Shown one piece after another: positions 3,874 through 56,606 of a stretch of DNA of 64,000 nucleotides. The position numbers and the translations under genes were made by a program. The first letter of the stretch is position 1, and each line of letters starts with the position of its first letter. The notes beneath the pieces were generated by a model. That model was given only the letters and a program-made list of their open reading frames with translations, did no database searches and was not told the origin of the DNA. Source of the stretch: Lewinellaceae bacterium (GTDB lineage: Bacteria; Bacteroidota; Bacteroidia; Chitinophagales; Saprospiraceae); NCBI GenBank assembly GCA_016713985.1, contig JADJOD010000005.1, positions 40,012 to 104,011 of the forward strand, read 5' to 3'.

Positions 3874-3921
3874 AAAACGTCTGAAATTTAGAAAGGCTTA
3901 GTAATTGAGATACAAGAGCAT

Positions 3922-3953
3922 GCGCCGTCTCCACAATAGCGTGGGGGCGGCGC
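3922..3953. terminator. GC-rich hairpin between convergent genes, likely a bidirectional terminator
   Basis: gcgccgtctccac-aatagc-gtgggggcggcgc forms the stem (with G-U pairs) and is followed by a T-rich tract (tgttattttattt). It lies between the stop at 3873 (+) and the stop at 3961 (-). Confidence 0.6.
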
Positions 3954-3960
3954 TGTTATT

Positions 3961-9466: not shown

Positions 9467-9548
9467 TACGACCTTTTTTTATTTCAACACTTTGATGCGC
9501 AGTAAACTGCGCGGACTATTGTTTTTTCAAAGATACATTTATTTGTTC

Positions 9549-14010: not shown

Positions 14011-16179
14011 TTACCCGCTGCGTATCAATTTGCCGCCGCTTTGTAATACCGTGAATTTGAGCCGGAAAACCGGGGCGTTTTCGCTGACAAAAACACCCGC
14101 TGCCTGCGACCAAACCACCCGAATCTCCCCGTCGGCAATATGGTATGTGCCAAAATGCTCCATCGCGAGTGGTAGCGCCGCAAAGGGCTGAATTTCAACA
14201 AATTGTAACTGATTCGGGTCAAAACGCAGGGCCATTTGGAAGGCCGCCAGGTCGTCCGTTTGGCCTGCGATGAATTCAACGACGACTTCTGCTCCCACCT
14301 CCAGGGTTTGCTCTTTTACCCGCCAGACCAGCGCATTGCCCGAACCGCTGAGGTTGGCGGGATTAGCCGTCGGCGTCACCACGTCACCGGTTTTGAAACC
14401 GTAAAAATCCTTGCCGGCCTGGTTGCCCGATACGTTCGTCAGTACGATGGTTTCCGGAAAACCCCACGGCGGATTGTTCATCGTATAACCCGCCGGCGCA
14501 AACCGCCACGAGGTTTTGATCTGCAACAGCGACGACTGGTTGCCCAGCAAGGCCTGGTTGATCAGCGATGCGTCGAGGCTTGTGACGGAGTTGCTTTTGT
14601 TCACGTCCGCCGCCACGATTTTATACGGGTCTGTGATCAACACCGCATTGGCCACGTGCTGCTGAATGGCCGTCGCGTCGGCGGTTGTCAGGCCATTCAA
14701 CTTGTTGATGTTTTTGGTCGGCGTGATCGTAAAACTCCCGGTATTTACGGTTGTGGTAAAATTGTAATTGCCGTCCGTGCCGGTCGTCATGTTTTCCGTC
14801 GCCGATCCACTGAGCGCTACCCCGGTGGTATTCACGCCCTGGTTGGGATCGGGTTGCCATTTGATCGCGCCGCTGATATTGATGTTGCAGCCGCCCACCG
14901 TGACGGTGAACGAACAATTGCCCGTATGACCTTCCGCGTCGGTCGCGTGCCAAACAACGGTGGTGATCGTGTTGCTCTGAAACACGTAACCGGCGAGTGA
15001 CGACCCGTTGTTCAGGCTGTTGCTGTTGTCTGTTATCACGCCGCAATTGTCGACGGCCGTCGCGTCGAACTCGTTGCCGGCACTCGTGTACATACAACCT
15101 GCGCCGCCGGGTGTGCGTATGGCGTCGGCCGGGCAGGTCATCGTGGGGATTTCACTGTCATTAACCGCCACCGTGAAGGAACATTCGGCGTTGCCGCCGC
15201 CCGCTTCGCCAGTATTAACGGTGTAGGTTACGGTTGTTGTTCCTGCGTTAAATAATTGATTTACAGGTACATTTCCGATGCCGCCGCCGGTCGTCGCCCC
15301 CGTAAGCAGGTAGGTGTGTAAATTACTGCATTGATCCGGCGAACCGGCCAGGCCAATGCCCGTCACGATTGCCGAGCAGTTGCCTGCGCCGTCGTCGCCG
15401 GTGCCGGCCGTTTTGCCTGCCGGGCAATTGGCCGTCGGGGGGAGGTTATCGGATACGTTCACGGTAATCATTTGCACATCCGAGTAGCCGGATTGGTCCG
15501 TCACTTCCACCTGCACTTCGTATTTGTTGTCGCCGTTTGCATCGGCCGGGTTTTCAAAATCAGGCTCAACATTGAACCATGATAAAATGCCCCATTGCAC
15601 GTCAATACTGAATTTTGACGCATCCGGGCCGCCCGTTATGCTGAAAGTCAGGCCGTCTGCCTCCACGTTTGCATTATCCGAGGCCTGCACGTCGTGGAGT
15701 GTGTCGGGGCAGGAAAGTTCGATAAAATCAACACTTGCGGGGGACGAAATAAACGGCTTTTCACTCGGCGCAAAATGGAGCGGGAGGGGATTGCCGGGAC
15801 TCCCCAGCACTTGCAGGTGTTTAAAAACAATGGTGTCGGAGGATTCGTACAATTGGTTTTGAATCAATAAATAAGCGCGGAATGAGAGCGAGTCGCCCGC
15901 ATAACTGTTGCTGTACAAAGTCAGGAAATAATACGCCTGGCCATCGCCCGGCAACAATGCTTCGGCTCTTCCGCGCACCACACCGTCGTGAAAAGCGGCG
16001 ATGACATTGTCCGGCGTGTGGTCGGGCTGCCCGCCCACTTGCAACCGGGCTACCACGTTCATGCTGAACTGGTAGTCGGCCGCGTTGACCGCCCAGGCGG
16101 GTTGCGCCAGTGCGTTTTGCACCGGCGCACAAAGCGCGCAAATCAAAAACAGCCACTTGTTTATGACGCGATGTGTCAT
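14011..16179 (-). CDS. Secreted cadherin-like / HYR-like repeat protein with dockerin-like and cohesin-like C-terminal modules; no T9SS CTD seen
   Basis: The signal peptide is MTHRVINKWLFLICALCAPVQNALAQ. A cadherin-like segment reads DFENPADANGDNKYEVQVEVTDQSGYSDVQMITVNVSD. Cys-containing HYR-like modules include GNCSFTVTV. The dockerin-like segment is ADVNKSNSVTSLDASLINQALLG. The C-terminus is colinear with gene 1..3873 but stops before the CTD. Confidence 0.75.
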   Translation of the reverse strand: MTHRVINKWLFLICALCAPVQNALAQPAWAVNAADYQFSMNVVARLQVGGQPDHTPDNVIAAFHDGVVRGRAEALLPGDGQAYYFLTLYSNSYAGDSLSFRAYLLIQNQLYESSDTIVFKHLQVLGSPGNPLPLHFAPSEKPFISSPASVDFIELSCPDTLHDVQASDNANVEADGLTFSITGGPDASKFSIDVQWGILSWFNVEPDFENPADANGDNKYEVQVEVTDQSGYSDVQMITVNVSDNLPPTANCPAGKTAGTGDDGAGNCSAIVTGIGLAGSPDQCSNLHTYLLTGATTGGGIGNVPVNQLFNAGTTTVTYTVNTGEAGGGNAECSFTVAVNDSEIPTMTCPADAIRTPGGAGCMYTSAGNEFDATAVDNCGVITDNSNSLNNGSSLAGYVFQSNTITTVVWHATDAEGHTGNCSFTVTVGGCNINISGAIKWQPDPNQGVNTTGVALSGSATENMTTGTDGNYNFTTTVNTGSFTITPTKNINKLNGLTTADATAIQQHVANAVLITDPYKIVAADVNKSNSVTSLDASLINQALLGNQSSLLQIKTSWRFAPAGYTMNNPPWGFPETIVLTNVSGNQAGKDFYGFKTGDVVTPTANPANLSGSGNALVWRVKEQTLEVGAEVVVEFIAGQTDDLAAFQMALRFDPNQLQFVEIQPFAALPLAMEHFGTYHIADGEIRVVWSQAAGVFVSENAPVFRLKFTVLQSGGKLIRSG

Positions 16180-16247
16180 GGTTTGTATCTTGTATAAAGT
16201 TTATTGTTCAGACTTGCGAGCCCCCCGCCACAGTGAAATGTCATTGC

Positions 16248-19200
16248 CTACTCCCGCACCACTTTTCGCGCCATCGTGCCTTCCGCCGATTCCATTTTTA
16301 CAAAATAAACCCCGGCTGGAAGTGATTTTTCCGGCAGCCATGTGTATACGTTTTTCCCTTGCCGCACTTCCCAGCGGAAGTGCTCCAGTGCCCGGCCCGA
16401 AACATCCGTAATGAAGACGTCCAGTTCCCCGCCGTGGTCGGCGTCATAAAGCAAGGTTGTCGCCTCGTTGAACGGATTGGGCTGTATATCAAAGCGTTGC
16501 GATATCGAAAGGTTGGCAATAGCACTTGTTTGCAACGTAAACGGAACGGGGTCTTCGATGGTCCCCTGGTGCAGGTCGGAGGCGAAATACATCGTCTCCG
16601 ACAAGTCGTTGATGCTGCCGTCGGCCGGATCGTACAGTTTGAAATGCAGCAATTCGCCCGTTGTGTTGGCATAGGTCGTCAGGAAATACAGGTGCGCGCC
16701 GAGGGGCTCCACCCACACCGCCTGCGCCGCGCCGCGCAGTTCGCCGCCTGCAAATGCGCCGAGTTCCGTGTTCGAAGGCGTGGTATTCTCCCCGTTTTGC
16801 GAACGCATTCCGATCAGCGTCATACTGTGTTCGTACTGCGCCGGGTTTACCTGCCAGAAAGCCGTCGCCGTCGGGTCGCCACGTTCGTCCACCGGCCCGT
16901 CCGGTTTGAAATGGTCGTCGGGATAGGTCAGGGCGCCGGCATTGCCCAGGCGAATTTGATAACCCAGCGGGGGTTGCATAAATTTCAGGTTGCCCAGCCA
17001 GCCGAAGCCGCTGATATACTGCGCGAAAGCGGTCTGGCTTTTGATGATGTCGCCGTTTTGGGGTGTCAGCGACGAGAGGGCCTCGTTCACCGGGAGGGCG
17101 AAATTCGGCAGGTAGCCCAGCCAATTCCAGCCGCTCACTAACGGAATGTTCACCGACGACGGGTCGATCAGATTGCCCAGCATGTTCAGGGTATCCGGTT
17201 GGTCGGCCCGGAACTGATACATCGTGGTGTTTGTCAGCGACGTGAGCGAACCGAACCAGCCGCTGCTGTACATCGAAAACACGCTTTGGCCTTTGATCAG
17301 GTCGTTGTCCGGGTGGTTCAGCGACGCCAAAGTCGGGTTAATCATCGGGTCCGGAAACGCGAGGTTGAACGACACCCAGTTCCAGCCGTCGCTGAACGGG
17401 ATTTCCCGCAGCACCAGGCTATTGGTATGCACCATTTGCGGCGCAATCGGCGTACCGATCACGTTGTCCGGCTGGAAGGTGAACACCTCCTGTACCGTGC
17501 CGTAACGCAGGCAGGCGGAAGCATCCCATATCTGGAGCAGCACCGGTTCGCCGGACTCATCCGATTCGCCGTAAATGGTGAGATAGGCCAGGTACTGATT
17601 CACCTGGGGCACGTACATTACGTGGGCCCGGCCGCGCAGTTCGTCGCCGATGTAGGCAGCCACAATATCCTCCGCATCCAGGGAAAATTCGCCCTCGATA
17701 TCGGGCTTCACCACCATGTTCATCGTCACTGGGTAAATACCCGCATCCAGGTCCCAGTCGGGCGGGCGGCACACCACACGAACACCAAAAGGCAAAGGTT
17801 CGTCGCCGCCCATGAAGAAGGGGTTGAGACCCGTTTCGGTGTGTAATACGATGGTATCGGCCCAGTGGCCGAAGGCCAGCGTGGAATCCACCTCGAATGT
17901 AATGGGGCGTACCTCATTGGCTACCAGCGTGCCCGAATTCGGCACCACACGCACCCAGTCGGGCGCCCCGGTAATGGTGAACGGCACCGGGTAACCGCCC
18001 CGGTTGTGGATACTGGCCGTCACCGTTTTGGTTTCGCCTTCATTTTTCGTCATGCCCGCGCTGTCCGTCAGCCAGGCCAGTTCGTTGCGGTCAACGTAAA
18101 ATTCCCATTCACTTTGCAGGAGGGTGTTTCCTGTTTTATCCTGTATGTCGTGCAATTCCGCCCGCAGGATATGGTTTTCAAAAAATTCGTTCTGAAAACT
18201 CGGATCGAGGACGATTTTGTTTTCAAAACAAGTGACGGCGATGTCGATAAGTTCCCCGGAAACGGCGTCGTAAAGCCCGACGTTATTGGGTTGTGTCACA
18301 TCCGCCGGGATCAGTTTGTCACAATTGATGTGTTTGTTGAAGGTGAAGGATATTTCGTCGCCGACCTGATATACTCCGTCCGAGGGCTGAGGCACACCGA
18401 CGAGGCTGGGCGGTTCCCGGTCGATACGCCCCTTAATAACCTGCGAAAAACCGGGTTTGTCGGAAGCGTCGCCGGTGCAAACGGCCACGGCACGTATCTC
18501 GTAGGGGCCGTCGGACAGGCCTTCCGTTTCCCAGAAAAACTGTGTGAATGTCGGCTGCAGTACGGGTGGTTTTGGATTGGGCAAGGCGGCGTACCCGGAC
18601 CAGTTGGGGTTGTAACGATCCGATATCCCCGGGATGTTGATCCACGCCCCGTCGCCATCGGAGCGCCGGTACTGCACCCGGACGAGTTGGAAGTCGGTGA
18701 CCGTGGTATCGTAGCCTGAAACGGTGATGCGCCGTTCGTTGTCGGGGCCGGGTGTAAGCGGGTCGGGAAAAATCACCCAGTCTTGCTCCGGAACGTTGAT
18801 GGCAACTTCGCTGCACGGGCGGATGAAGTGAGCGCTGATATAGATGGGCGAGTACAAAATGGTGTGATCATCCGGCGCAATACCAAGGGCGGTAGCCCGC
18901 TCATCTTCGCAGAGGGAGTAAAACACCACTTCCAGGCTGTCGTAGTCGTATTCCTCCGGTCCGCGCTCCAGCGTGATCGTAACCGGAATAGAAGTACCCC
19001 AGGGAATGGCATAAAGTACATAGCCATTTAGCGAACCCCCATTTACCTTGATTTGAGCGCCGTGCGGATTACTTTCCGGCCCGGCAGTGAGGGCATAGGT
19101 CCAGGTTTCGTTGGTGGAACTGGTGTTGCTCAGGGTCATTTTGAAGACTGCCGGCTCGTTGGCGGGAACATCCACTTTTACCGGGCCGTCGCCATCCCTC

Positions 19201-22200
19201 ATGGACAGCAGGCAACCTTCGCGGTGGGCGGTGCCCGGCTCCCAGGGGCAGGAGGATTGGCCCGCTGCCAGTCTGAAAATCGGTGTGTTATATACGGGAT
19301 CAAGACCTACATCAAAAGTAAAAAAATCGCCCATATCATCATCATTGAGCGTATATCCAACGGTAACGCCACTTTTGGCTTCTGTGCCGGCGCTTCTGCT
19401 AAAGGTCCTTGATTTTGAAAACTGGGCGTATGCGTTGAAACCCGCATTATTAAAGTATACGCCGGCGACAAATTCCCCTTCCGAACCCCGTATGCTGTCA
19501 CTGCTTACCAAAGTGGTATTTGTGGTATCCGAGGTAATGGAATACTCATAATTCGAGCCGGAGCCGAAAGTGATGTTTTCGTTGTACTGGGCGGTGTCTT
19601 TCCGGGTGCGGTTGTCAGCGATGATTTGGTTCCACCGCTGAATGGACAGGTTGTACGTGCTGGCATCATCGGGTGATGTACCGGGGTCGCTGGCCAGTTT
19701 TTCCAGGTTAGGAATTACATACTCCGTGATTTCAAATTCGGAGTAAATAAATTTCGTGGCAAAATCCCCCGGCGACACAAATACGGACTCGATGACCGAT
19801 GCTTCACAGTCTTCAAAAGTAACTTCATCTATATTGCCGAATTTCAGGTTTTGCGCAAACCCAACAAACACATCGCCGCCTTGTGCGTCGCCTACAATCA
19901 GGTCTCCATCGTTTGTCGAAACACGTTCATCAAAAGTGATGCAGGTCTGGTAGATCGTGTCTGTCAAATCCTGATAAGCGATAATACCGCCGCCGCTTCC
20001 TCCCAGTAATGGCGTAAAATCTTCCACGGTACCGATCAAGGGTAGCACGATTTCCAACTCTGGCAGTGTATTAAACTGAACCCCGCCGTGGTTGGCCGTA
20101 TCGATGGCAAAACCGACCGAGGTTTCATTACAAATGGTCGTGTTCTTTTCTATGAATGCATAACTGCCATCCCCCGGCGGGTCATGCAATACAAAGAAGG
20201 GGGTTTCCGGCAACTTGGTCGTGAAGGTCGTTTCCTTTATTCGTGTCCCGGTCACGACAGCCTGCACCACCAAACTGGTCTCATTACCACTCAGCGGAGT
20301 CGCGACAATCTGCATTGTTTTCAGATACGGCGGCGTTGAATTGGGAACCCCTACCGTAAAGGTGTATTGGAGCGTCCCCATACTCATAGCGGTGTCTTTT
20401 AACTCGTCGGCAAAGCCATTGATGATCTTGAAATGAGCGGTGTCCACATAACAATCGCCCCCGGCATATACTTCTTTAAGCCGGATAGTCATCGTCTTCT
20501 GCTCAAATTGGTCCATCACAATAACCTGACAATCAGGACTGTAAGCCTCCAGGCCGCTGCTTACCTCTATTACAGGAGGCGCATAGTAGATGAAATCGGT
20601 CACAGCAGTATCTTTTTGGGTCAAATCCGCCGTGATACCGCCCGACACCTGAAAAAACGTTTTGATGGCTGGATCGGAGTGTTCGGTCACGGCTACGGTC
20701 ATGGCGATGGGAGGCAAGTTGCCGAACTCAAATTTACCTTCTTCATTATCAAGCGTTATGATTCGTTCGAAACAGCCGTCCGTCGAACGCACTTTTACCG
20801 TACAAACGGTGCCCTGAGGGGTGCCGACATTTTTCAAAACCGGTTTTCTGCATTCGCCGCCAGCCACCTGGCCGGTTATTTTACGTGTTGTGATGTCGTT
20901 AAAAAGAATACCTGCAACAGGGTTGACGACATTGGCAAGGTCCCAAAAAGCAGGCGTGAATACGTGGTCTTCAAACTTCGGCGATAAGGTTACCGTAGCG
21001 CCGGGGTCCAGATCGATCAAAAATTTGCCGGTTGAGTCGCTGAAAATGGGTGGACTGTACGACTCGCCATTGATCAGAATTTCCACCTGCTCCGCAAAAC
21101 AATCGGTGTTTTTGTAGCGCACGAAACCCGATACCGCCACCGTCGAACGATCCGTAAAATCCACCTGGTCGACAGAAGTCACGCTGGGGTTGAGCGTCAC
21201 CTGGCGGGTGGTGGGGGTGAATTCGTGCGGCGTGGTGCTTTGATTCGGCGCAAAAGGCGACCATTCCGTGCCGAAACTGGTACCGGACCCGGTAAGCAGG
21301 GAGCCGCTGTTGTTCAGCCGGTTGCCGCTGCCTTCGTCGAAGGAGAAATAGGCGTGGAGGCCCCGTTCCTGCGGGTCGCGGGAAATTTGGGCGTGTTCCT
21401 GGATTTTGGCTTCCGTCAGCGTGGTGTCGTAAAAAGCCACTTCATCGATCAGGCCGTCAAAAAAAGCCGTGTAGCCGGCTCCTTGCTTGCGGGTGCCGAG
21501 AAGCCAGGTTTCCGTGGTATCCGACCAGTTTCCGCTTATACCGGAGAAGGTGAAAGAACCGATCGGGGCGCCGTTTTTGTAACCCGTCACGGTGCGATCG
21601 GCGCCACTGCTGTCGATGGTGAATGCCAGGTGCTGATAGCCATTTCCAAGCAATCCGAAATCCTGGTTTACGCCGTTGAAATGAATCCGGATGATGTTGT
21701 CGGTGCCGGATTGGGTCAGTACAAGGCGAAATTCGTTACTCGTATCCCATTTTTTGGACAAAATAACCTGATTGCCGTTGGGCGAAGCATTATTGACCCA
21801 TGCTTCGATGGTGGCTTTCGGAGGCAGCGAAAAATCGGGCAGGGTGGCATAATCCAGCATAGAGCGGTTGAATTTGAGCGCCCGGTGCCTGTAAAAATTC
21901 TTGAACGGCTCTGCCAGGAACGTGGTACCCGTGCCATAACTGGCCGATTCGATGCGATAGTAGCCGTCGTCATTGGTGATGGCCGATGTGCGCACGGGCG
22001 GGCGGTCAGTATCGAACTGCGCGCCGCAGAAATACAACTTGTTGCGTCGCACCACATCGAACGATTTGCTGCCTTGTTCCTCGTCCATTTTCCAGTACGT
22101 CATCAGTCCGGGGGTAGTGGACGAAGCCGTGCCTTCCATAATTTCTCCCAAATCCAGTTCATCCAGTTTTCGGGTATAAATTCGCAATTCATCCATCCGG

Positions 22201-23237
22201 CCCTGCCATCCTCCGTTGGTGGTGCGGGCGCCGAGATTCAGGTCGGTCGTCAAACCTGCAGGCGCATTCATCGCACTGATGTCTGCGAGTACGCCGTCGA
22301 GGTAAAGTTGGCCCTGGTTGTTGCTGTACGTCAGCGCAATGTGGTGCCAGGCGTTTTTGGTGCTGTCCGGGAAATTGACGGAAAAAGTACCCGCTGCCAC
22401 ACCCGGCGCATTGACCATGATACCTTCCTGAGCGCCGGCACTGTTAAGCGCCTGAATATAAAGTGAATACGGTGCGAACTGAATCACTCCTGCATTGGCC
22501 GCCGCCGTGTTGGTTTTTATCCAAAAAGCCAGGGACCACTGCGACAGGATCGGCAAGAGGGTATTGACGGATGTGTCGGCTTCGGCAAAAGCGCCGTCGG
22601 TTGCCCCGAATTTGGCCGAAAAACCCTGCATCGGCATAAGCGTCACCAGGGCGCCGGGCACCGGGCTGCCATTTACGGTTTCTACCAAACCCGTCACCAC
22701 GCCGTTGGGCACCTGAAATCCGAGGGCCTTACCCGGCACTCCTTCGCCGTAAATATTCACGCCGCGCACTTCATAGTTGTAAGGTTGGCCGGCGATGACG
22801 TTGAAGTCGTTGTAACTCCGGGTGTTTTTGTCGACAGAGGCCAGAAAAATGCCGTCGCGATAAATATTAAAGCCGCCGTCGAAGCTGGGGCTGAGCGGAT
22901 CCACGGCCCAGCGGAGCTGGATGCGGTCGAGCAGATCGCCCTGTGTGGCCACCACGGAGGGGGCGGTGGGCGGCGCGACGAAGCGCATCCAGAAACCTGC
23001 CCCGGCACTGTAATACTGGTTGTAAAACGTGCCGACCAGCGGTTCGCCAACGGAAGAGTTGTGACGGTTTTTGTTGTTAAAAGCGCCCGTGACACTTCCG
23101 TAATTGAAAAAAATGCCTCCTGTATACGTCTCCGTGCCCGTTGCGCCGCCTGCACAGTTGGCATCCTGTGCCAACAATTGCGACCCCGAGGCACACCAAA
23201 GCGTGAGCAGGAAAAATATGCTGCGGATATTTTTCAT
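16248..23237 (-). CDS. Giant (2329 aa) secreted protein with an FN3-like domain, at least two LamG/concanavalin-like domains and a T9SS C-terminal sorting domain
   Basis: The signal peptide is MKNIRSIFFLLTLWCASGSQLLAQ; the ORF-track start at 23306 reads through upstream repeat sequence. LamG-type segments are WHHIALTYSNNQGQLYLDGV...GRMDELRIYTRKLDELDLGEI and YQHLAFTID...FDGLIDEVAFYDTTLTEAKIQEH. The CTD is FDIQPNPFNEATTLLYDADHGGELDVFITDVSGRALE...LPAGVYFVKMESAEGTMARKVVRE. Confidence 0.85.
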   Translation of the reverse strand: MKNIRSIFFLLTLWCASGSQLLAQDANCAGGATGTETYTGGIFFNYGSVTGAFNNKNRHNSSVGEPLVGTFYNQYYSAGAGFWMRFVAPPTAPSVVATQGDLLDRIQLRWAVDPLSPSFDGGFNIYRDGIFLASVDKNTRSYNDFNVIAGQPYNYEVRGVNIYGEGVPGKALGFQVPNGVVTGLVETVNGSPVPGALVTLMPMQGFSAKFGATDGAFAEADTSVNTLLPILSQWSLAFWIKTNTAAANAGVIQFAPYSLYIQALNSAGAQEGIMVNAPGVAAGTFSVNFPDSTKNAWHHIALTYSNNQGQLYLDGVLADISAMNAPAGLTTDLNLGARTTNGGWQGRMDELRIYTRKLDELDLGEIMEGTASSTTPGLMTYWKMDEEQGSKSFDVVRRNKLYFCGAQFDTDRPPVRTSAITNDDGYYRIESASYGTGTTFLAEPFKNFYRHRALKFNRSMLDYATLPDFSLPPKATIEAWVNNASPNGNQVILSKKWDTSNEFRLVLTQSGTDNIIRIHFNGVNQDFGLLGNGYQHLAFTIDSSGADRTVTGYKNGAPIGSFTFSGISGNWSDTTETWLLGTRKQGAGYTAFFDGLIDEVAFYDTTLTEAKIQEHAQISRDPQERGLHAYFSFDEGSGNRLNNSGSLLTGSGTSFGTEWSPFAPNQSTTPHEFTPTTRQVTLNPSVTSVDQVDFTDRSTVAVSGFVRYKNTDCFAEQVEILINGESYSPPIFSDSTGKFLIDLDPGATVTLSPKFEDHVFTPAFWDLANVVNPVAGILFNDITTRKITGQVAGGECRKPVLKNVGTPQGTVCTVKVRSTDGCFERIITLDNEEGKFEFGNLPPIAMTVAVTEHSDPAIKTFFQVSGGITADLTQKDTAVTDFIYYAPPVIEVSSGLEAYSPDCQVIVMDQFEQKTMTIRLKEVYAGGDCYVDTAHFKIINGFADELKDTAMSMGTLQYTFTVGVPNSTPPYLKTMQIVATPLSGNETSLVVQAVVTGTRIKETTFTTKLPETPFFVLHDPPGDGSYAFIEKNTTICNETSVGFAIDTANHGGVQFNTLPELEIVLPLIGTVEDFTPLLGGSGGGIIAYQDLTDTIYQTCITFDERVSTNDGDLIVGDAQGGDVFVGFAQNLKFGNIDEVTFEDCEASVIESVFVSPGDFATKFIYSEFEITEYVIPNLEKLASDPGTSPDDASTYNLSIQRWNQIIADNRTRKDTAQYNENITFGSGSNYEYSITSDTTNTTLVSSDSIRGSEGEFVAGVYFNNAGFNAYAQFSKSRTFSRSAGTEAKSGVTVGYTLNDDDMGDFFTFDVGLDPVYNTPIFRLAAGQSSCPWEPGTAHREGCLLSMRDGDGPVKVDVPANEPAVFKMTLSNTSSTNETWTYALTAGPESNPHGAQIKVNGGSLNGYVLYAIPWGTSIPVTITLERGPEEYDYDSLEVVFYSLCEDERATALGIAPDDHTILYSPIYISAHFIRPCSEVAINVPEQDWVIFPDPLTPGPDNERRITVSGYDTTVTDFQLVRVQYRRSDGDGAWINIPGISDRYNPNWSGYAALPNPKPPVLQPTFTQFFWETEGLSDGPYEIRAVAVCTGDASDKPGFSQVIKGRIDREPPSLVGVPQPSDGVYQVGDEISFTFNKHINCDKLIPADVTQPNNVGLYDAVSGELIDIAVTCFENKIVLDPSFQNEFFENHILRAELHDIQDKTGNTLLQSEWEFYVDRNELAWLTDSAGMTKNEGETKTVTASIHNRGGYPVPFTITGAPDWVRVVPNSGTLVANEVRPITFEVDSTLAFGHWADTIVLHTETGLNPFFMGGDEPLPFGVRVVCRPPDWDLDAGIYPVTMNMVVKPDIEGEFSLDAEDIVAAYIGDELRGRAHVMYVPQVNQYLAYLTIYGESDESGEPVLLQIWDASACLRYGTVQEVFTFQPDNVIGTPIAPQMVHTNSLVLREIPFSDGWNWVSFNLAFPDPMINPTLASLNHPDNDLIKGQSVFSMYSSGWFGSLTSLTNTTMYQFRADQPDTLNMLGNLIDPSSVNIPLVSGWNWLGYLPNFALPVNEALSSLTPQNGDIIKSQTAFAQYISGFGWLGNLKFMQPPLGYQIRLGNAGALTYPDDHFKPDGPVDERGDPTATAFWQVNPAQYEHSMTLIGMRSQNGENTTPSNTELGAFAGGELRGAAQAVWVEPLGAHLYFLTTYANTTGELLHFKLYDPADGSINDLSETMYFASDLHQGTIEDPVPFTLQTSAIANLSISQRFDIQPNPFNEATTLLYDADHGGELDVFITDVSGRALEHFRWEVRQGKNVYTWLPEKSLPAGVYFVKMESAEGTMARKVVRE

Positions 23238-23302
23238 GGTAAAAACAAGGGAATGATGAATGATAAATGAAAAGTGGGGAATTCCCGGGCAGCAATCGGA
23301 AA

Positions 23303-24861
23303 TCACTTCCGATCGCTGCCGCTGTTACCGCGGGTGCTGCTGCTTGCCCGGAGTGCGTTCACGTCGGCACGGAGTTCGTTCAATGCCTCGCGCAAGGCGG
23401 CGTTTTCAGCCTGGAGGTTTGAAAAATCTGCCCGGTTTTGCGCTTTTTCCTGCTTCAAAGCGGCGATCTGTTGTTGTTGTTCGCGCAACAACGGAATGAT
23501 GTACACCACCATCCGGTCGTACATCAAGGCATCCGGGCGGCCCTGTTCGTCGTACACGACCAATTGTTTCAGACCTAAAACGTCGAGTTCTTCGGCAATA
23601 AAACCAATCTCCCACTCGTGGGGGCGCCCGGGACGGGTATACTTTTTCGGTTCGGCAAGCAACAGCCGGCTGAAATCTGCCGTCAGGGGCGTAATTTGCT
23701 CTTTATATCGCGCCGACGAAGTGGCTTTTACGATTCTTCCATCGGACTGAATGCCGAGCGCGGCGCCCGTGCCCGTAGAAACTTCAGCATAGACATCGGA
23801 GGAAGTGATCCGCATTTTCTGGGTATTATCCGCATAAAAACTCACGGATCCGGCATCCAGGGAAAACATACCGGAATCATCGTCGCCCCCCGTTTGAAAG
23901 GCGTAACCATTGTGGTTTGCACCAAAAGCGCCGGGTGCGCCACCGCGGGCGAGCATGCCGCCGGCTAAATACAGGCGATCCTGGTTCAGTTCAAGCCGTT
24001 CCACGTTGTTGGTAAAAAGGCTTACAGTGCCATCACCGAGGCTGTACAGGCCGGAGTCGTTGTCACCGTTGTTGCCGGCAAAGGCGTAGCCGTTTTTGTT
24101 TGAGCCGCTGGCGCCGGGCGCGCCGCCACGCGCAACAATATTTTGTTCGGCCAGCACCGGCCCACCAATCCGGACAAGCCCGCCGGAGGGTGGGTTCAGT
24201 TGAATTTCACTGGCTGAGCCGAAGCACAACAGTTGCAGGTTGCCCTGATTGTTACCGATCCGGAATGTATTGCCGCTTACCTGTTGGTTGAAGCCCAAAT
24301 ATCCGCCCAATACGTCCGCTTTTTTCAGGTACAATTCCGTGACGCCATTATCGGGGCCTTCCACCAGAATTTTGGCTGAGCCGCCGGAAACCGTGTTTTT
24401 TACGTGGAGTTTCTCCGTAGGTGTTGCAGCGCCGATCCCCACATTTCCGGAAGAGGGGAATTTGTTGTCCTGCCCGATCAACGACAACGCATACGGCGCC
24501 GAGGTAAGCGGGATACGTGGTATCATCTCGGAACCTGAACCCACCGCCACACTGACAAAATAAGGCTCCGTGAAAGGAATATTGAGGGCAGTGACCGATC
24601 CCAGCACCGCGCTGTAGATGCCGCCGGTCACTTCCACCGTGGGTTGTATTTCCGTCCAAATGGCCGAGCCGCCGGTTTCGACGTTGTAAATACGAAACTT
24701 GAGGGAATACTCGCCATCCGTCAATGCAGTGCCGTCGCTTTTTTTAAGGAAACCCTGGATACTCAACTTGGCCTGGGCATGAAGGGTTGTAGTAAAAGCA
24801 GCAAAAACAAAATCGTCAGAAGTGTTGCCGGGATAGTGTGGAATGCAAAACTGCTTTTCAT
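23303..24861 (-). pseudogene. Tail-fibre-like protein with a C-terminal peptidase S74 (intramolecular chaperone, endosialidase-type) domain and a coiled coil. The signal peptide is separated by one frame break.
   Basis: The S74-type segment is SSARYKEQITPLTADFSRLLLAEPKKYTR...EIGFIAEELDVLGLKQLVVYDEQGRPDALMYDRMVVYIIPLLREQQQQIAAL. Fibre-like VGIGAATPTEKLHVKN is present. The upstream ORF 24763..24948 encodes MKSSFAFHTIPATLLTILFLLL.... It joins as ...LLLFTTTLHAQAKLSIQGFLKK if one base is added to the run at 24794-24797. Confidence 0.8.
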
Positions 24862-24961
24862 AGTAGAAAAAAAATTGAACAAGTGAAGAAGTAGGTGCGG
24901 TGCCGAAGGTTTCATTGCCGGGGCTGCGACAAAGGTGCCGGCAGGCACACGTACCGGTTTC

Positions 24962-25037
24962 CCACTATCTGTTCAACGCAGTGGAGCATTTGTTCCGACA
25001 GGCGGACTATTTATTCGGAAAGGTGGACTATTTGTTC
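24962..25037 (-). promoter_or_regulatory. Array of four 13-bp direct repeats (minus strand GAAYARATRSTSS; best copies GAACAAATAGTCC and GAATAAATAGTCC) at exact 21-bp spacing, upstream of the tail-fibre/giant operon
   Basis: The plus-strand copies start at 24962 (ccactatctgttc), 24983 (ggagcatttgttc), 25004 (ggactatttattc) and 25025 (ggactatttgttc). The array lies 100-176 nt upstream of the start at 24861 and 56 nt downstream of the HTCS #2 stop. Confidence 0.6.
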
Positions 25038-25092
25038 AGGAGAGCCGGCGACTGGCGTCTAATTTACTCTTTTTCAGATCATTAGACCTTTT

Positions 25093-28000
25093 TTATTCGC
25101 AAGGCGGAAGGCGTTGTCTCAAATTCTTCTGAAAAGGCCCGGCTGAAAAATTTCGGATCGTTGAACCCACTTCATAAGCGATTTCGGACACAGTGAAGGT
25201 CGTGGAGAGCAGTAACTGACGCGCTTTTTGCAGCCGGATGAGTCGGATGTAGATATTAAGCGAGCGACCGGTCAGGGCGGATAATTTTCGATACACCACC
25301 GGATAACTCATGCCGAGAGTTCGGCACACGTCTTCTCCGGTCAGGGTGGAGTCCCCAAGGCGGCTTTCTACGGCGGCCCGCAATTTTTGCAAAAAAACGT
25401 CCTCGTTGTTCGGTGATTGGAAGTCTGTAGACGGAGTGGTCGATTCACCCGTCGCCAAACCCCAATCTTTATTCGAATACTTCGCCTGCAATTTCCGGCG
25501 CAGCTCCAACAAGTTGCTCAACACTGCCCGCAATTCGTCGGGGTGAAAAGGTTTGGCCAAATAAGCGTCTGCGCCCTGGCGCAGCCCGGCGATACGGTCG
25601 TCCACACCGGCTTTTGCCGTCAGCAACACAATGGGAATATGGCTGCTGCGCTCGTCGTTTTTCAGCGTATCGCACACCTCAAAACCGTCTTTTTCGGGCA
25701 TCATCACGTCAGAAATGATCAGATCGGGGATACTTTCGACAGCCCGTTCGATACCCGCCCGGCCATTGCGGGCCAGCATGACCTGGTACTGTTCGCGCAC
25801 ACAAGCGGCCACATAATCCGCCACATCGGCGTGGTCTTCCACGATCAGCACCGAGGGGCGTTGGTCGGAATCTCCGGTATGATCTTGTACCGGCAACAAG
25901 GGCGCGGTCGGGGTGGGGAAGGCTGGCAAAGCCGGCGGGAAGGCCGGCAAAGCCGGAACGCCGGCTTCCAGGCGGCTCGTCAACGGCAGTAACACCGTAA
26001 AAACAGACCCTCCCCCTCCCGATATTGGGTCGGGGCTGCTCACCGAAATGTCGCCCTGCATGAGTCTGACTAATTCGCGGGCCAGGGCGAGTCCGATACC
26101 GGTGCCGCCGCTGTGGCGGGTGGAAGAATCATCGGCCTGGTAAAAACGGTCGAAAACATATGGCAATTTTTCGGGCGCGATGCCTACACCCGTGTCTTTC
26201 ACCCGCAGCGACAACCAGGGTTGATTTTTTTGCACGATCTCCTTGATTTGCACATAAATATGCCCGCCGTCGGGGGTGAATTTGATGGCATTGGAGAGCA
26301 GATTGACAACAATCGTCTGCATTCTTTCCGGGTCGTAATCCATTTCCACTGCGGGGCTATCCGACAAAAAATGCAGTTGTACGCCCTGCCCTGTGGCATA
26401 GGAGTGAAAGGATTCGGTGATGTATTTGATGAACATCACCACGTCGCCCCGCTGCAACTGGAGCCTCATGTTACCCGATTCGAGTTTGGAGAGGTCGAGC
26501 AGTTGGTTGATGAGTTGCAGCAGTTGCGATCCGTTGCGTTGTACCGTTTCCAGCAGCAACTCCTGGGGCCTTGCTCCCTGCCCGGCCAGATATTGCTTGA
26601 CTTGCTCCGTCACACCGAGAATGACGGTCAGCGGTGTGCGAAACTCGTGCGTAATGTTGGTGTAAAGCCGGGTTTTGACCTGGTCGAGTTCCTGGAGGCG
26701 CCGGGTTTCGGCATGGTCGAGCCGGCGGCGCAACTGGATTTGATAGAAGCCGTAAGCCGCGCCTGCTGCCAATAACAAATACAGCGCGCAGGCCCACCAC
26801 GAGGCATACCAGGGCGGGTGGATCAGGATGCGCAGGGTGGCAGGTGCGTCATTCCATACGCCATCGCTGTTGGCCGTTTTTACTTTAAATGTATACGTAC
26901 CGGGCGACAGGTTGAGGTATTGCGCCGTATGTTCGAAGCCCTTGTGCGCCCATTCGGATTCGGCCCCTTCGAGGTAAAATTGGAACTGGTTGCGCTCCGG
27001 TTTTGCATAGTCTAAGGCGGCGAATTGAAGGAGCAGGTTGTTTTGGGAATAATCCAGTTCGAGCATTTCCGTGAACTCGATACCCCGGGTCAGGAGGGAA
27101 GCCGAGTCCCGGGGGTCCAGCAACCGGCCATTGATATTCAATGCCGTAAGGCGCACTTTCGGCGCTTGCGCATTAACCGACAAGTCATTGGGGTCAAAAA
27201 TCGTCAGGCCGTTTACGCCGCCGAAAACCAGCCGGCCATCCGGCATTTTGCCATAAGAATAAGTGTTGAACTCATTACCCGGCAAACCATCCGATTGCAG
27301 GAAATATTGAAACCGCCGGGTGGCGGGGTCAAATTTGTTCAAACCTTTGTTGGTGCTGAGCCACAAGTTATTGCCTTCCGGTACAATGCCGTATACCACA
27401 TCATCCGACAGGCCGTTGCGGGTATTAAAATGGGTGAAGTGACCGGTGCGTGTGTCCAGCCGGCTCATCCCCCCGCCACCGGTACCGATCCACAGGATGT
27501 TGGCATCCGCCGGGTCGATCAGCAGGCATTTGATGTTGTTGGCGGGCAGGCTGTTGCGATTATTGGGATCATTTTGCAACTTGCTGAAGCGGTAGCCACC
27601 CGCAGCATCCGGTTGTGCCCGGACGATATTTTTGGTCAGCGCAATCCAGTGGCTGCCGTCTGCGGTCACCGCCGCTGCCAGCACGCTGGGTTCACCCACA
27701 CCAAACGGGCTGTAATCGTATGCCGTGAATTGCCGGCTTTTTTGGTCGAAACGCAGCATCCGGTAAGGCAGATAAACCCAGATAACATCGGGCGCTTCGT
27801 GGCGCAATGCGAGCACGTCGAAATAACGTTGCGGGTCAAGGGCGTATTGAAAAACCTCCGTGCGGCCACTGCCTGGCTGGTAATGGATCAATTTGCCCTG
27901 CTGTTTCCGTGTATCCTGGCCACTTGTCCACAGGTCGCCGGCATTGTCGGATACGGTGAAAAGCGAAACCATATCCTGCGCCGCTTTCGCAAACGGGTAA

Positions 28001-29151
28001 GGCATCAACTGTCCGGTAGTCAGGTTCAGTCGATTGAATAATGATCTTTTAAAAACGGGCTGGTTGATACGCCCGAGCCAAATATCGCCCTGCGCGTCTG
28101 TAAAAGGCGGGCTGTAAATTGAAAGCCCCGGCAAGTAATTTTTGAAAGCGGCAGCGCGTGGGTTGAACCGACGGATGCCGTGTGCATTGGTGCCAAACCA
28201 CACGATACCGAACTGGTCGGTAAGGCTGCTCACCACACCTTCGGGTATTGTTAAACGCAATGCAGCTTGTGCCGGCCCAATGGTCGGCGGCAAATGTTGC
28301 AAGTCAAAATGAAAACCGCAGATCTCCTCCATATCTATCCAGATCAGCTGCTTGCGCGGGTCGAAATGCCGCAGGGCGTTCACCGGGCGCTCTGTACGAA
28401 TCAAATGCCAGGGAGCATTCAGCCGGGTCGCGTCTAAGTGCGCAAGCAGATGGCGGTTACCGAGCCAAACCCCGTTGGCGCCGTCATTCGCCAGGTACAT
28501 CATCGTGTCCCGGCCCGGTACCTCGAATCGCCGGATTTGGCGCGAAGCCGGGTCCAAACGATACACCTCCCGCCCGTTCGGCTCAAGCAACCACAACATA
28601 CGCCCGTCTTCGCTCAATACCACATCCCGGCAGTTTATTTCCGCCGATAAGTCTTCCAAATTCTGAATCTGTTGCTGCGGGCCGGCGTTCCTGATTTTTT
28701 CCTTCACTTCGGGTGTCAGCACCAAACGTCGTATCGGGGTTTTTCGCTCGAAAATATACAAGGTACTGCCTCCATCACTCAATGCGTACGCGGCCTTCGA
28801 GGCAACATGATAAAAACGGCGTGTTTGCCGGTCGAGCAAGTCAATACCTGCATAAGTCAGAACGCACAAAAACTCGCCCGCTTCCGCCACGTTTAGAATG
28901 CCGTTGTGCGAAATGGAATAGGGATCGTAAGGGTCGTGCTGGAAGACCAAAAACTCGTATCCGTCGTAGCGGCACAAGCCGTCGTTGGTGCCAAACCACA
29001 GAAATCCTTCGCGGTCCTGGCAGATAGACACGACATAGCCCTGCGGCAACCCCTGCTCGATGGTTATTTTTCCCAACTCCAGCGAGGTTTGTGCGGGCAT
29101 TGATCGCTGCACAAAAAAGATCAGGCAAAGCAGGGTGAACGAGCGGAGCAT
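25093..29151 (-). CDS. Hybrid two-component system sensor kinase/response regulator with AraC-type HTH (HTCS #2, intact, 1352 aa)
   Basis: The gene encodes a signal peptide and periplasmic propeller repeats, then a Y_Y_Y-like region (GTYTFKVKTANSDGVWN) and a TM segment. It also has the H-box ITHEFRTPLTVILG, HATPase GGTGIGLALARELVRLMQG, a REC domain (VLIVEDHADVADYV...DLIISDVMMPEKDGFEV...PIVLLTAKA) and an AraC HTH (IRLIRLQKARQLLLSTTFTVSEIAYEVG). Confidence 0.9.
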   Translation of the reverse strand: MLRSFTLLCLIFFVQRSMPAQTSLELGKITIEQGLPQGYVVSICQDREGFLWFGTNDGLCRYDGYEFLVFQHDPYDPYSISHNGILNVAEAGEFLCVLTYAGIDLLDRQTRRFYHVASKAAYALSDGGSTLYIFERKTPIRRLVLTPEVKEKIRNAGPQQQIQNLEDLSAEINCRDVVLSEDGRMLWLLEPNGREVYRLDPASRQIRRFEVPGRDTMMYLANDGANGVWLGNRHLLAHLDATRLNAPWHLIRTERPVNALRHFDPRKQLIWIDMEEICGFHFDLQHLPPTIGPAQAALRLTIPEGVVSSLTDQFGIVWFGTNAHGIRRFNPRAAAFKNYLPGLSIYSPPFTDAQGDIWLGRINQPVFKRSLFNRLNLTTGQLMPYPFAKAAQDMVSLFTVSDNAGDLWTSGQDTRKQQGKLIHYQPGSGRTEVFQYALDPQRYFDVLALRHEAPDVIWVYLPYRMLRFDQKSRQFTAYDYSPFGVGEPSVLAAAVTADGSHWIALTKNIVRAQPDAAGGYRFSKLQNDPNNRNSLPANNIKCLLIDPADANILWIGTGGGGMSRLDTRTGHFTHFNTRNGLSDDVVYGIVPEGNNLWLSTNKGLNKFDPATRRFQYFLQSDGLPGNEFNTYSYGKMPDGRLVFGGVNGLTIFDPNDLSVNAQAPKVRLTALNINGRLLDPRDSASLLTRGIEFTEMLELDYSQNNLLLQFAALDYAKPERNQFQFYLEGAESEWAHKGFEHTAQYLNLSPGTYTFKVKTANSDGVWNDAPATLRILIHPPWYASWWACALYLLLAAGAAYGFYQIQLRRRLDHAETRRLQELDQVKTRLYTNITHEFRTPLTVILGVTEQVKQYLAGQGARPQELLLETVQRNGSQLLQLINQLLDLSKLESGNMRLQLQRGDVVMFIKYITESFHSYATGQGVQLHFLSDSPAVEMDYDPERMQTIVVNLLSNAIKFTPDGGHIYVQIKEIVQKNQPWLSLRVKDTGVGIAPEKLPYVFDRFYQADDSSTRHSGGTGIGLALARELVRLMQGDISVSSPDPISGGGGSVFTVLLPLTSRLEAGVPALPAFPPALPAFPTPTAPLLPVQDHTGDSDQRPSVLIVEDHADVADYVAACVREQYQVMLARNGRAGIERAVESIPDLIISDVMMPEKDGFEVCDTLKNDERSSHIPIVLLTAKAGVDDRIAGLRQGADAYLAKPFHPDELRAVLSNLLELRRKLQAKYSNKDWGLATGESTTPSTDFQSPNNEDVFLQKLRAAVESRLGDSTLTGEDVCRTLGMSYPVVYRKLSALTGRSLNIYIRLIRLQKARQLLLSTTFTVSEIAYEVGSTIRNFSAGPFQKNLRQRLPPCE

Positions 29152-37259: not shown

Positions 37260-37341
37260 GCAGGATGGCAAAACGGATGGCACGGACGAACCGGATAAAA
37301 ATCCGTTCAAATCAGCAAAATCCGATTTATCCGTTTGCCAT

Positions 37342-37431
37342 CCTGTCAATCCTGTCAATCCTGTCAATCCTGTCAATCCTGTAAATCCTGTCAATCCTGT
37401 CAATCCTGTCAATCCTGTCAATCCTGTCTAT
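37342..37431 (+). repeat. Tandem repeat, 10 x 9 bp (cctgtcaat; unit 5 is cctgtaaat, unit 10 is cctgtctat), directly upstream of the D-TA family gene
   Basis: Counted unit by unit from the sequence. The array ends 15 nt before the ATG at 37446. It is preceded by an imperfect hairpin, ggatggcaaaacggat (from about 37263) paired with atccgtttgccatcc (to about 37342). Confidence 0.95.
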
Positions 37432-37445
37432 TTTTAAAACAACAC

Positions 37446-38555
37446 ATGTCCCCCAACTGGTACACCATCACAAACGAAGCCACGGTCGAATCGCCTGCCA
37501 TTCTCCTCTTCCCCGACCGTATCCGGGAAAATATCCGGCGGATGATCGCCATTGCCGGCAGCGCCGGTCGCCTGCGCCCGCACGTCAAAACCCACAAACT
37601 GCCCCAGGTGATCCGGATGCAGACGGACGCCGGGATCACCCGATTCAAATGCGCCACCCTGAGTGAAGCCGAAATGGTGGCGGCAAATGGCGGCAAGGAT
37701 ATTTTAATGGCTTATCCCCTGTACGGCCCGGCCCTCGACCGCCTGTTCCGGTTGATGAAAAATTACCCGGAAGTCCGGTTTTCTGTGCTGATTGACAATG
37801 AATTACAGGCCCGAAACATCGCCCGGCAAGCCGAATCCGCCCAACAAACGCCCGGCGTTTTTATCGACCTCAACGTGGGTATGAACCGGACCGGTATCCC
37901 GCCCGGCCCGGAAGCCCTCGCCTTGTACCGTTTTATTAAAAACAATCCTTTTTTGCACCTGCGCGGGTTGCACGCCTACGACGGCCACCTGCACCAGGCA
38001 GACCGGGTGGAACGGGAAAGGTTTTGCGACGCCGGTTTCGAAGCCGTCGACGCCATGCTCGCCGTGCTGGAAAAGGAAGGTCTGCGCCCCGAAGAACTGG
38101 TCTGCGGCGGAACCCCCACGTTTCCCATCCACGCCCAACACCCGGAACGCACCCTGAGCCCCGGCACCATTTTGTTGTGGGACTGGGGGTATTCGTCCAA
38201 ATTCCAGGACCTGGATTTCCAACACGCGGCGGTGCTTCTGTGCCGGGTGGTCAGCAAACCCGGCCCCGGCATACTCTGCCTCGACCTCGGCCACAAAGCC
38301 GTCGCCTCGGAAATGACGCCGCCTCGCGTACATTTTATGGATATTCCGGATTACACACACCTCGGCCACAGCGAAGAACACCTCGTGATCACCTTCGACG
38401 GTGCGGACCGTTTTAATCCGGGAGATTGCCTCTACGGTATTCCCACTCATATTTGCCCCACAATGGCCCTGCACGATGCCGTGTGGGCGGTTTCGGGCCA
38501 TCGAGCGGTAGAAAAATGGAGCGTTACGGCGCGAACAAGGGAAGTAATATCCTGA
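37446..38555 (+). CDS. D-TA family PLP-dependent enzyme (D-serine dehydratase DSD1-like / D-threonine aldolase-like, alanine racemase N-terminal fold)
   Basis: RLRPHVKTHKLPQV carries the PLP-lysine motif H.KTHK. FKCATLSEAEMVA is present, and the C-terminus has GHSEEHLVI...GDCLYGIPTHICPT. The ORF-track start at 37335 translates the tandem repeat (CQSCQSCQ...). Confidence 0.8.
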   Translation: MSPNWYTITNEATVESPAILLFPDRIRENIRRMIAIAGSAGRLRPHVKTHKLPQVIRMQTDAGITRFKCATLSEAEMVAANGGKDILMAYPLYGPALDRLFRLMKNYPEVRFSVLIDNELQARNIARQAESAQQTPGVFIDLNVGMNRTGIPPGPEALALYRFIKNNPFLHLRGLHAYDGHLHQADRVERERFCDAGFEAVDAMLAVLEKEGLRPEELVCGGTPTFPIHAQHPERTLSPGTILLWDWGYSSKFQDLDFQHAAVLLCRVVSKPGPGILCLDLGHKAVASEMTPPRVHFMDIPDYTHLGHSEEHLVITFDGADRFNPGDCLYGIPTHICPTMALHDAVWAVSGHRAVEKWSVTARTREVIS

Positions 38556-51110: not shown

Positions 51111-51112
51111 AT

Positions 51113-51889: not shown

Positions 51890-51999
51890 AGCGGATGTTT
51901 CACCCGCTGTACGGCGGACTTCCAAGTCCGTCCCAGCCGCGGGCGGGACATCCGGGTAAAATTCCACACGTCGATTTCAACCGTTCTAAACTCAGCCTT

Positions 52000-54237: not shown

Positions 54238-54249
54238 GCCACGGCCGCA

Positions 54250-56544: not shown

Positions 56545-56606
56545 TGATGGTAGCAGATCGTAATCATATATCGGGATGACACGATACCGCAACAAAAAAC
56601 AAAACA

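Follow-up and report, generated by a model that had tools for sequence, protein, structure and literature searches.

A four-site direct-repeat array as the probable operator of a hybrid two-component system beside a Saprospiraceae surface-protein operon

What reads four head-to-tail repeats, set at an exact 21-bp period between the gene of a hybrid two-component system (HTCS) and an operon for surface proteins, and to what effect? We addressed this question in a 64-kb window (the whole stretch of DNA analysed here) from a Saprospiraceae bacterium of activated sludge. The relevant genes all lie on the minus strand, in the transcription order permease, HTCS#2, repeats, fibre-like gene, LamG gene, cohesin-domain gene and HTCS#1. 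A sequence-only reading of the window had proposed that the repeats are an operator of a flanking HTCS, and the conserved 21-bp phase, the linkage to HTCS genes, the co-variation of a recognition helix with the half-site and the published anatomy of such operators support this. Array conservation, linkage, co-variation and an intact regulator together make it very probable that the array is the operator of HTCS#2, which is encoded immediately upstream.

The repeat array and its conservation

A repeat search and Tandem Repeats Finder gave a period of 21 bp, as claimed, and the plus-strand starts given by the earlier reading (24962, 24983, 25004 and 25025) were reproduced. We scored arrays by adding up the matches over all pairs among four 13-mers set at a constant period, for every position and every period from 15 to 30, and used 100 first-order Markov simulations of the window as the null. 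The array scored 60 out of 78, against best simulated scores with a mean of 43.6 (standard deviation 1.75, maximum 49), and only a 9-bp microsatellite elsewhere in the window scored higher. A four-copy 21-bp array is far beyond chance. The 13-mer is not dispersed in the window (19 matches at up to three mismatches, 16.4 expected), and its only cluster is these four copies. Likewise, scanning with a position weight matrix (PWM) built from 35 canonical homologous sites in 13 arrays found no second 21-bp pair in the 64 kb. The window thus holds a single array and not the dispersed repeat family that the sequence-only reading had named as evidence against itself. Isolated PWM matches at 7804 (plus strand) and 4185 (minus strand) are single sites within open reading frames (ORFs) and were taken as chance; a partial motif after the HTCS#1 stop (9513-9525) is single and degenerate. 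Independent short-read contigs from wastewater metagenomes (run X1) reproduce positions 24826-25400 with unchanged repeat spacing; apart from a substitution at 25056, which lies outside the repeats, and an extra base after 25165, they match the window. The 21-bp spacing is therefore not an assembly artefact.

The conserved unit, first read as 13 nt, is in fact 16 nt long (GAACAAATAGTCCACC) and is followed by a 5-nt spacer. Its consensus is GAAnnnATAsTCCACC, in which G1 A2 A3, A7 T8 A9 and T11 C12 C13 A14 C15 C16 are essentially invariant across the 35 sites, and positions 4-6 and 10 vary. The fourth copy had been ranked on a par with the other repeats; it is a conserved special variant, not a decayed copy, with ten canonical nucleotides followed by six of a conserved GTGG type. 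The window thus carries four 16-nt half-sites, where an HTCS operator is defined by at least two head-to-tail half-sites of about 14-16 bp at about 21 bp (PMC3878776). The array is made up as follows, with predicted coordinates of -112 to -34 deduced from the position of the -7 box described below.

25037 to 24959, minus strand: array of four head-to-tail copies, exact 21-bp period
25022..25037, minus strand: half-site 1 (distal), GAACAAATAGTCCACC; predicted -112..-97; PWM 23.1 bits; then spacer tttcc
25001..25016, minus strand: half-site 2, GAATAAATAGTCCGCC; predicted -91..-76; PWM 18.9 bits; then spacer tgtcg
24980..24995, minus strand: half-site 3, GAACAAATGCTCCACT; predicted -70..-55; PWM 17.6 bits; then spacer gcgtt
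24959..24974, minus strand: half-site 4 (proximal variant), GAACAGATAGTGGGAA; predicted -49..-34

About 18 further arrays, from genomes and metagenomes of Saprospiraceae and other Bacteroidota, have two to four sites at 21 bp and a GTGG-type proximal site. A protein-guided scan of species-representative genomes recovered three orthologous fibre/LamG loci:

L001: 85% identity; four sites at exactly 21 bp
L002: 64% identity; two sites
L003: orthologous fibre/LamG operon; two sites

Scanning metagenome contigs for the DNA pattern alone, blind to genes, gave 32 loci, nine of which carry ten arrays of the same architecture (L010, L014, L015, L016, L024, L026, L027, L030 with two, and L031), and look-ups of HTCS relatives added L038-L042 and L047. 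The pattern matches in L006, L008, L009, L011-L013, L017-L019, L021, L022, L025, L028, L029 and L032-L037 were rejected as coding or chance.

In an alignment of 14 arrays (A1), the site columns and the A..TTTG of a downstream box are invariant, as are columns G78 T79 G80 G81 (14/14), and the spacers and flanks differ. Across loci at 64-85% protein identity the site columns stay unchanged while the spacers diverge, which is the pattern of a phylogenetic footprint. The 3' half of the proximal variant reads GTGGGAA in most arrays and GTGGACC in L014/L038, with weaker forms in L039 (GTACCCC) and L042 (GTGCGAA); the variant site is also present in L040, L041 and L047. In the window, L001, L002, L014, L015, L016, L024, L026, L030, L038-L042 and L047, the array is preceded, at a distance of 40-130 nt, by the end of an HTCS gene. 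The arrangement of the window, with an array upstream of a gene in an HTCS locus, is thus found in more than 12 other loci.

This anatomy is familiar from gut Bacteroides. The 16 predicted HTCS motifs of B. thetaiotaomicron are all direct repeats with a mean distance of 21 bp, and the example of Ravcheev et al. consists of two 16-bp sites and a 5-bp spacer, from which its authors inferred dimeric binding (PMC3878776). In their BT0366/BT0367 alignment, TGTCCACC...TGTGCCACC is followed 20-21 nt later by TATTTTTG (PMC3878776); the TCCACC core and the distance to the -7 box (TAnnTTTG) are common to these sites and the window. A DNase footprint of BT4124 at bt4114 resolved four half-sites (Ia, Ib, IIa and IIb) about 21-22 bp apart (PMC13292587, 2026 JBC), the number found in the window. 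The Bacteroides operators (BT0366 at BT0367; BT4124 at bt4114 and bt4108) likewise consist of 14-16-bp direct-repeat half-sites at a period of about 21 bp beside an HTCS gene, and from its sequence the window array appears to be of this known operator type. It differs from them in its host, a Saprospiraceae of activated sludge rather than a gut Bacteroides; in targets that lack susC/susD or carbohydrate-active enzyme genes and are instead fibre, LamG, ricin-lectin and Tectonin-MACPF proteins; in setting four sites in one unbroken 21-bp register with a dedicated, conserved proximal variant (GTGGGAA); and in the existence of a one-component version of the regulator (L003).

More distantly, AraC at araI1-araI2 and XylS at Pm place domains with two helix-turn-helix (HTH) motifs on direct-repeat half-sites 21 bp apart from centre to centre, and in the class II arrangement of AraC/XylS the proximal half-site abuts or overlaps the -35 region. 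By analogy, we consider AraC I1-I2 and XylS/Pm to be functional counterparts of the window array. They differ from it in that HTCS#2 is a membrane-anchored hybrid kinase controlled by phosphorylation, where AraC and XylS respond to a cytoplasmic ligand; in that the window promoter is of the Bacteroidota sigma-A type (-7/-33) and has four sites, not two; and in that no O2-type DNA-looping site is evident in the window.

Variations on this architecture were also seen. Three arrays without an adjoining HTCS count as remote regulon members: the L010 array lies after rsmF, that of L027 diverges from a DEAD-box helicase gene, and for L031 the DNA examined contains no HTCS. L030 (364-1504) has two tandem arrays about 1 kb apart, before successive genes, and a promoter cassette comprising the HTCS 3' end, four sites and the -7 box is duplicated before different genes in related strains (L030, L015, L024, L026, L016). 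The one-component version in L003 (about 990-3961) is a 991-amino-acid (aa) regulator with a propeller/Y_Y_Y sensor, a transmembrane segment (TM) and an AraC domain, without kinase or receiver; it still has two 21-bp half-sites downstream. In L040 (1-3738), L041 (1-3777) and L046 (471-3780), gene calling puts the sensor-kinase part and the receiver-AraC part in two neighbouring genes, with a 4-nt overlap in L041. Such loci may hold true split two-component pairs, or the division may be a frameshift artefact; the receiver N-terminus of P0022 is garbled, which suggests a frameshift. Possibly related 21-bp tandem units with an ATAyTCCACC-like core occur on contigs of other Bacteroidota (L023, L007, L020): L023, from human gut, has four units (1880-1990) upstream of parA, divergent from surE-lpxB and with no HTCS nearby, and L007 has at least seven tandem units (about 1830-1990).

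The regulator and its pairing with the half-site

Two HTCS genes flank the operon:

25082..29151, minus strand: HTCS#2 gene as corrected (assembled ORF 29151-25093), domains by Pfam
13825-9549, minus strand: HTCS#1 gene, downstream of the operon

In the assembly, the DNA-binding domain (DBD) of HTCS#2 is frameshifted at about 25165 by a 1-nt homopolymer deletion, and the Illumina contigs restore the base. The corrected protein has 1356 aa and ends at a TAA at 25084-25082, 44 nt from the first half-site; the stop at 25093, 56 nt from the array, given by the sequence-only reading was an artefact of the deletion. One polypeptide thus combines Reg_prop propellers, Y_Y_Y, a TM, HisKA, HATPase_c, Response_reg (REC) and an AraC-type HTH_18 domain, and it retains the H-box (ITHEFRTPL), the receiver Asp (ISDVMMP) and the SSHIP latch, a motif described for Bacteroides HTCSs (PMC11253607). 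As judged from the corrected sequence, HTCS#2 is intact. The best match of its DBD in the PDB is a hybrid two-component system REC-DBD structure (12aw, E=2e-16), and it also aligns with the structures of XylR, SoxS, Rob, AraC and MarA. A two-copy 21-bp tandem repeat at 25916-25956, in the linker of HTCS#2, encodes a duplicated PALPAFP peptide.

By their recognition helix 1, the AraC-type domains of the homologous regulators form four classes, each with its own half-site variant at positions 4-6:

Helix 1 YRKLS: GAACAAATA; window, L014/L038, L039, L047
Helix 1 HRKVT: GAAAGrATA (GAAAGAATA as the HRKVT-class counterpart of GAACAAATA); L001, L002, L015, L016, L026, L030, L040
Helix 1 QPQLHR[RK]LT: GAATG..; L003, L041
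Helix 1 TNLHNKLS: GAAC-AATA; L042

Helix 2 (FNDPKFFSR) is constant, as is TCCACC. The helix classes, set on the first loci, correctly predicted the motif in five further loci from four lineages (L038, L039, L040, L041 and L047) before their DNA was read. In addition, identity in the DBD tracks the motif class, and identity in the sensor does not:

Window and L014: DBD 70%, sensor 41%
Window and L002: DBD 59%, sensor 64%
L001 and L002: DBD 88%, sensor 39%

L047 shares with the window its DBD class, its site variant and even two spacers, and drives a different gene; DBD and operator thus behave as a module. The Y/H position of helix 1 presumably corresponds to a base-contacting residue of MarA helix 3, a lead that comes from our own alignment to MarA.

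Because helix class predicts motif class, the binder is probably HTCS#2. HTCS#1 is an unlikely one: both of its recognition helices (LQRRINRLTG; FRDEKHFSQIFRERFG) depart from those of HTCS#2, and its receiver domain contains a repeat insertion of about 40 aa. The proposal that one or both flanking HTCSs bind the array can therefore be narrowed to HTCS#2, as far as sequence can tell, and the suggested recognition by an AraC/XylS- or OmpR-type domain to an AraC-type output domain, leaving the OmpR alternative moot.

The insertion in HTCS#1 is itself a palindromic repeat, AATGATGAATGATGA.../...TCATCATTCATCA (10190-10320), read in frame. Its GAATGAT repeat recurs at 23251-23270, at the junction of the fibre and LamG genes, and in L001 at 7675-7715, just past the HTCS stop, and looks like a small dispersed hairpin repeat. 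Downstream of HTCS#1 lies a two-copy 21-bp tandem repeat (9107-9147, CTTTGCGTCTTCGCGTGAAAC).

Promoter geometry and the sign of regulation

The array ends 98 nt before the ATG at 24861, which was correctly taken as the operon start. Between the two lies a candidate promoter element:

24930..24937, minus strand: predicted sigma-A -7 box CACCTTTG; positions -12..-5; 21 nt past the proximal site

TAnnTTTG is the sigma-A -7 box of Bacteroidota, at -12..-5 (PMC7366714, PMC9723704). The A and TTTG of the box are invariant and at a fixed offset in all 14 aligned arrays; its form is [C/T]AnnTTTG in 16 arrays and one base off in two (L042, TATTCTTG; L047, GACTTTTG). The proximal site ends 21 nt before the conserved [C/T]AnnTTTG in 15 of the 18 arrays, the exceptions being these two and L016 (20 nt), which would put it at -49..-34 of the predicted transcription start. 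In the window, transcription would begin near 24925, giving a 5' untranslated region (UTR) of about 64 nt. The array is thus predicted to adjoin the core promoter rather than to act as a remote upstream element. TTTG is missing from -33, and 16 of the 18 arrays have C instead of T at -12, as expected for an activator-dependent promoter.

Other promoter readings were discarded. A scan for sigma-70 promoters and terminators gave nothing useful, being of the wrong promoter type for the phylum. A sigma-54-like GGCAC-N5-TCGCA just upstream of the window -7 box is not conserved in L001 and others, and an extracytoplasmic-function reading with GGGAA as -35 has no conserved CGT-type -10, the conserved element being the sigma-A-like AnnTTTG. 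An inverted repeat that pairs the proximal site with codons 7-10 of gene 1 is not conserved in L001 and was ascribed to chance.

These features suggest the following scheme. One AraC-type output domain would read each 16-nt half-site through its two HTH motifs, helix 1 meeting the variable 5' part (positions 4-6) and the invariant helix 2 the invariant TCCACC. As 21 bp corresponds to two helical turns, successive domains would line up head to tail along the same face of the helix; one HTCS dimer would occupy two adjacent half-sites, and the four sites would hold two dimers. The proximal site, ending 21 nt upstream of the weak sigma-A -7 box, would fill the usual place of the -33 element. The periplasmic propeller/Y_Y_Y sensor would detect a ligand, probably a glycan, phosphotransfer would free the DBD from the receiver domain, and bound HTCS#2 would recruit RNA polymerase, as AraC does at araI1-I2, switching on the operon for fibre, LamG and cohesin-like surface proteins. 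We infer each of these elements (binding, helix-to-base assignments, stoichiometry, transcription start, activation over repression, and ligand), and on balance class-II-like activation by HTCS#2 appears the more probable mode.

Several observations weigh against this account. The 3' end of the regulator gene adjoins the operator, and co-inheritance or a single recombination tract could give the co-variation without function. Three-site arrays (L015, L027, L030b) misfit a strict two-dimer model, and the close HTCS relatives L043, L045, L046 and L048 have no downstream array. The window -7 box has C, not T, at -12, and its putative role is deduced from conservation. The RNA contigs cover the coding region only (four short contigs at low level, inside gene 1). 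Finally, BT4124, the sole HTCS with four footprinted half-sites, is a repressor that down-regulates its targets, so the sign of regulation may differ (PMC13292587).

This last point feeds the strongest alternative, in which HTCS#2, bound at the same sites, is a repressor: with -112 to -34 occupied, access of RNA polymerase or use of an upstream element would be blocked, and repression would be lifted or imposed by the signal. No HTCS other than BT4124 has footprinted tandem half-site pairs, and it down-regulates its targets; in addition, the -33 region falls under the proximal site. The core promoter, however, looks activator-dependent. Moreover, the geometry equals that of the BT0367 promoter, which is assigned to the arabinan-sensing HTCS BT0366, presumably an activator of its polysaccharide utilisation locus (PUL), and equals the textbook class II activation by AraC at I1-I2 and by XylS. 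Repression is accordingly a minority possibility, albeit one to be taken seriously.

It is improbable that another protein binds the array, be it HTCS#1, a LytTR-type response regulator or an unlinked factor. HTCS#1 does flank the operon, the arrays of L010, L027 and L031 lie away from any HTCS, and LytTR operators (AgrA, ComE, AlgR type) are likewise direct repeats of about 21-bp period upstream of promoters. LytTR sites, however, are 9-bp repeats with 12-bp spacers, where the window has a 16-nt unit, a 5-nt spacer and a motif that tracks an AraC-type helix, and the window proteins that were scanned contain no LytTR domain. The recognition helices and disrupted receiver of HTCS#1 speak against it, the motif class follows helix 1 of the adjoining AraC domain in four classes, and predicted Bacteroides HTCS sites have the same TCCACC core.

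Less credible still is a non-functional tandem duplication or dispersed repeat, such as a miniature inverted-repeat transposable element, a repetitive extragenic palindrome, an iteron or a DnaA-box cluster. Neighbouring window units do share spacer similarity (TTCCGACAGGCGGAC / TTCGGAAAGGTGGAC, 80%), entire promoter cassettes are duplicated in related genomes (L030a/b, L015, L024, L026), and the TCCAC core loosely resembles a DnaA box (about 6/9 by hand alignment). Yet there is one array in 64 kb, every Saprospiraceae-type array found faces a downstream gene at a fixed distance from the -7 box, sites are invariant and spacers diverged at 64-85% protein identity, and replication genes are absent nearby. 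Least likely of all is an RNA-level element in the 3' UTR of the HTCS#2 mRNA or the operon's 5' leader: no clear terminator separates the HTCS#2 stop from the array, so that read-through transcripts would include it, but the intergenic region has no Rfam match at E<=1, the direct repeats form no conserved hairpin, and arrays not preceded by an HTCS gene (L010, L027, L031) keep the -7-box offset, indicating a function in DNA at the promoter.

Targets and wider meaning

The array thus taken as the operator of HTCS#2 would serve a three-gene operon, shown here with the gene preceding HTCS#2:

14011..24861, minus strand: target operon, three genes
24861-23303, minus strand: gene 1, fibre-like protein with a weak S74 chaperone-like C-terminus
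23306-16248, minus strand: gene 2, 2352-aa LamG protein with a weak match to a type IX secretion system C-terminal sorting domain
16179-14011, minus strand: gene 3, 722-aa protein with a cohesin domain and weak dockerin/cadherin-like matches
30676-29333, minus strand: amino-acid permease gene

A second 1-nt assembly deletion lies in the signal-peptide codons of gene 1, after 24802, where the Illumina contigs insert a base, and HTCS#1 is split into two ORFs near 11864-11885 by a single-base homopolymer deletion; the apparent pseudogenes (gene 1, HTCS#2 and HTCS#1) are probably assembly errors. The N-terminus of the fibre-like protein has two weak matches, to the N-domain of the 'mosaic adhesive trimer' fibres of Bdellovibrio (NCBIfam NF053851, below the cut-off at E=8e-5) and to Bd2133 (PDB 8ond, E=1e-4), and the C-terminal match to the S74 intramolecular chaperone is also below the family cut-off. 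Homologues of the fibre N-terminal domain in a Saprospirales metagenome-assembled genome (MAG; L004 7680-7800, L005 5500-5620) have neither an HTCS nor a 21-bp array. They share ATGTCCAnnnTTTGTCCA and a conserved leader of about 60 nt (atgacccgcgta..ttgc..cgaaaac..gaaagc), for which Rfam gave no significant match (one weak snoRNA match, E=0.46).

Two further features of the window were recorded. The higher-scoring microsatellite, ATCCTGTCA x 9.9 with 97% matches, lies at 37340-37428, at or just upstream of the 5' end of an Ala_racemase_N / D-Ser-dehydratase-like gene (37335-38555). A second cluster, at 49657-59162 on the plus strand, encodes phage tail collar, Gp10 baseplate-like, DUF6603 and LamG domains; it may be a tail-like or contractile-injection-type locus and has no HTCS-type array upstream.

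The typical, though not strictly defining, target of an HTCS is a susC/susD PUL, and this is not what the array precedes. In the window and its orthologues the targets are the fibre-like protein, the LamG giant and the cohesin-domain protein. Elsewhere they are Tectonin-MACPF proteins (L016, and L024 by similarity to L016), ricin-B lectin proteins (L031, L038, L040) and small unknown proteins. In the literature searched, no paper mentioned both Saprospiraceae and hybrid two-component systems.

The comparison provides a multi-genome HTCS operator outside gut Bacteroides, with a defined half-site, phase, spacing from the -7 box and special proximal variant, and the motif can serve to predict regulons in Saprospiraceae MAGs. 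The four pairs of helix 1 and half-site that occur in nature form a specificity series that can be used to study how AraC-type HTCS output domains read DNA. The most interesting aspect is the non-PUL regulon: in these abundant activated-sludge bacteria, the output of HTCSs may be not glycan catabolism but secreted fibres, lectins and perforin-like proteins, and such targets point to surface-glycan sensing in cell-cell attachment or predation. More speculatively, a glycan-sensing HTCS subfamily of Saprospiraceae might have been rewired from PULs to adhesive fibres, ricin-type lectins and Tectonin-MACPF pore-formers as a sensor-controlled toolkit for attachment or predation, with DBD and operator serving as an exchangeable cassette and a helix-1 code insulating the paralogues from one another.

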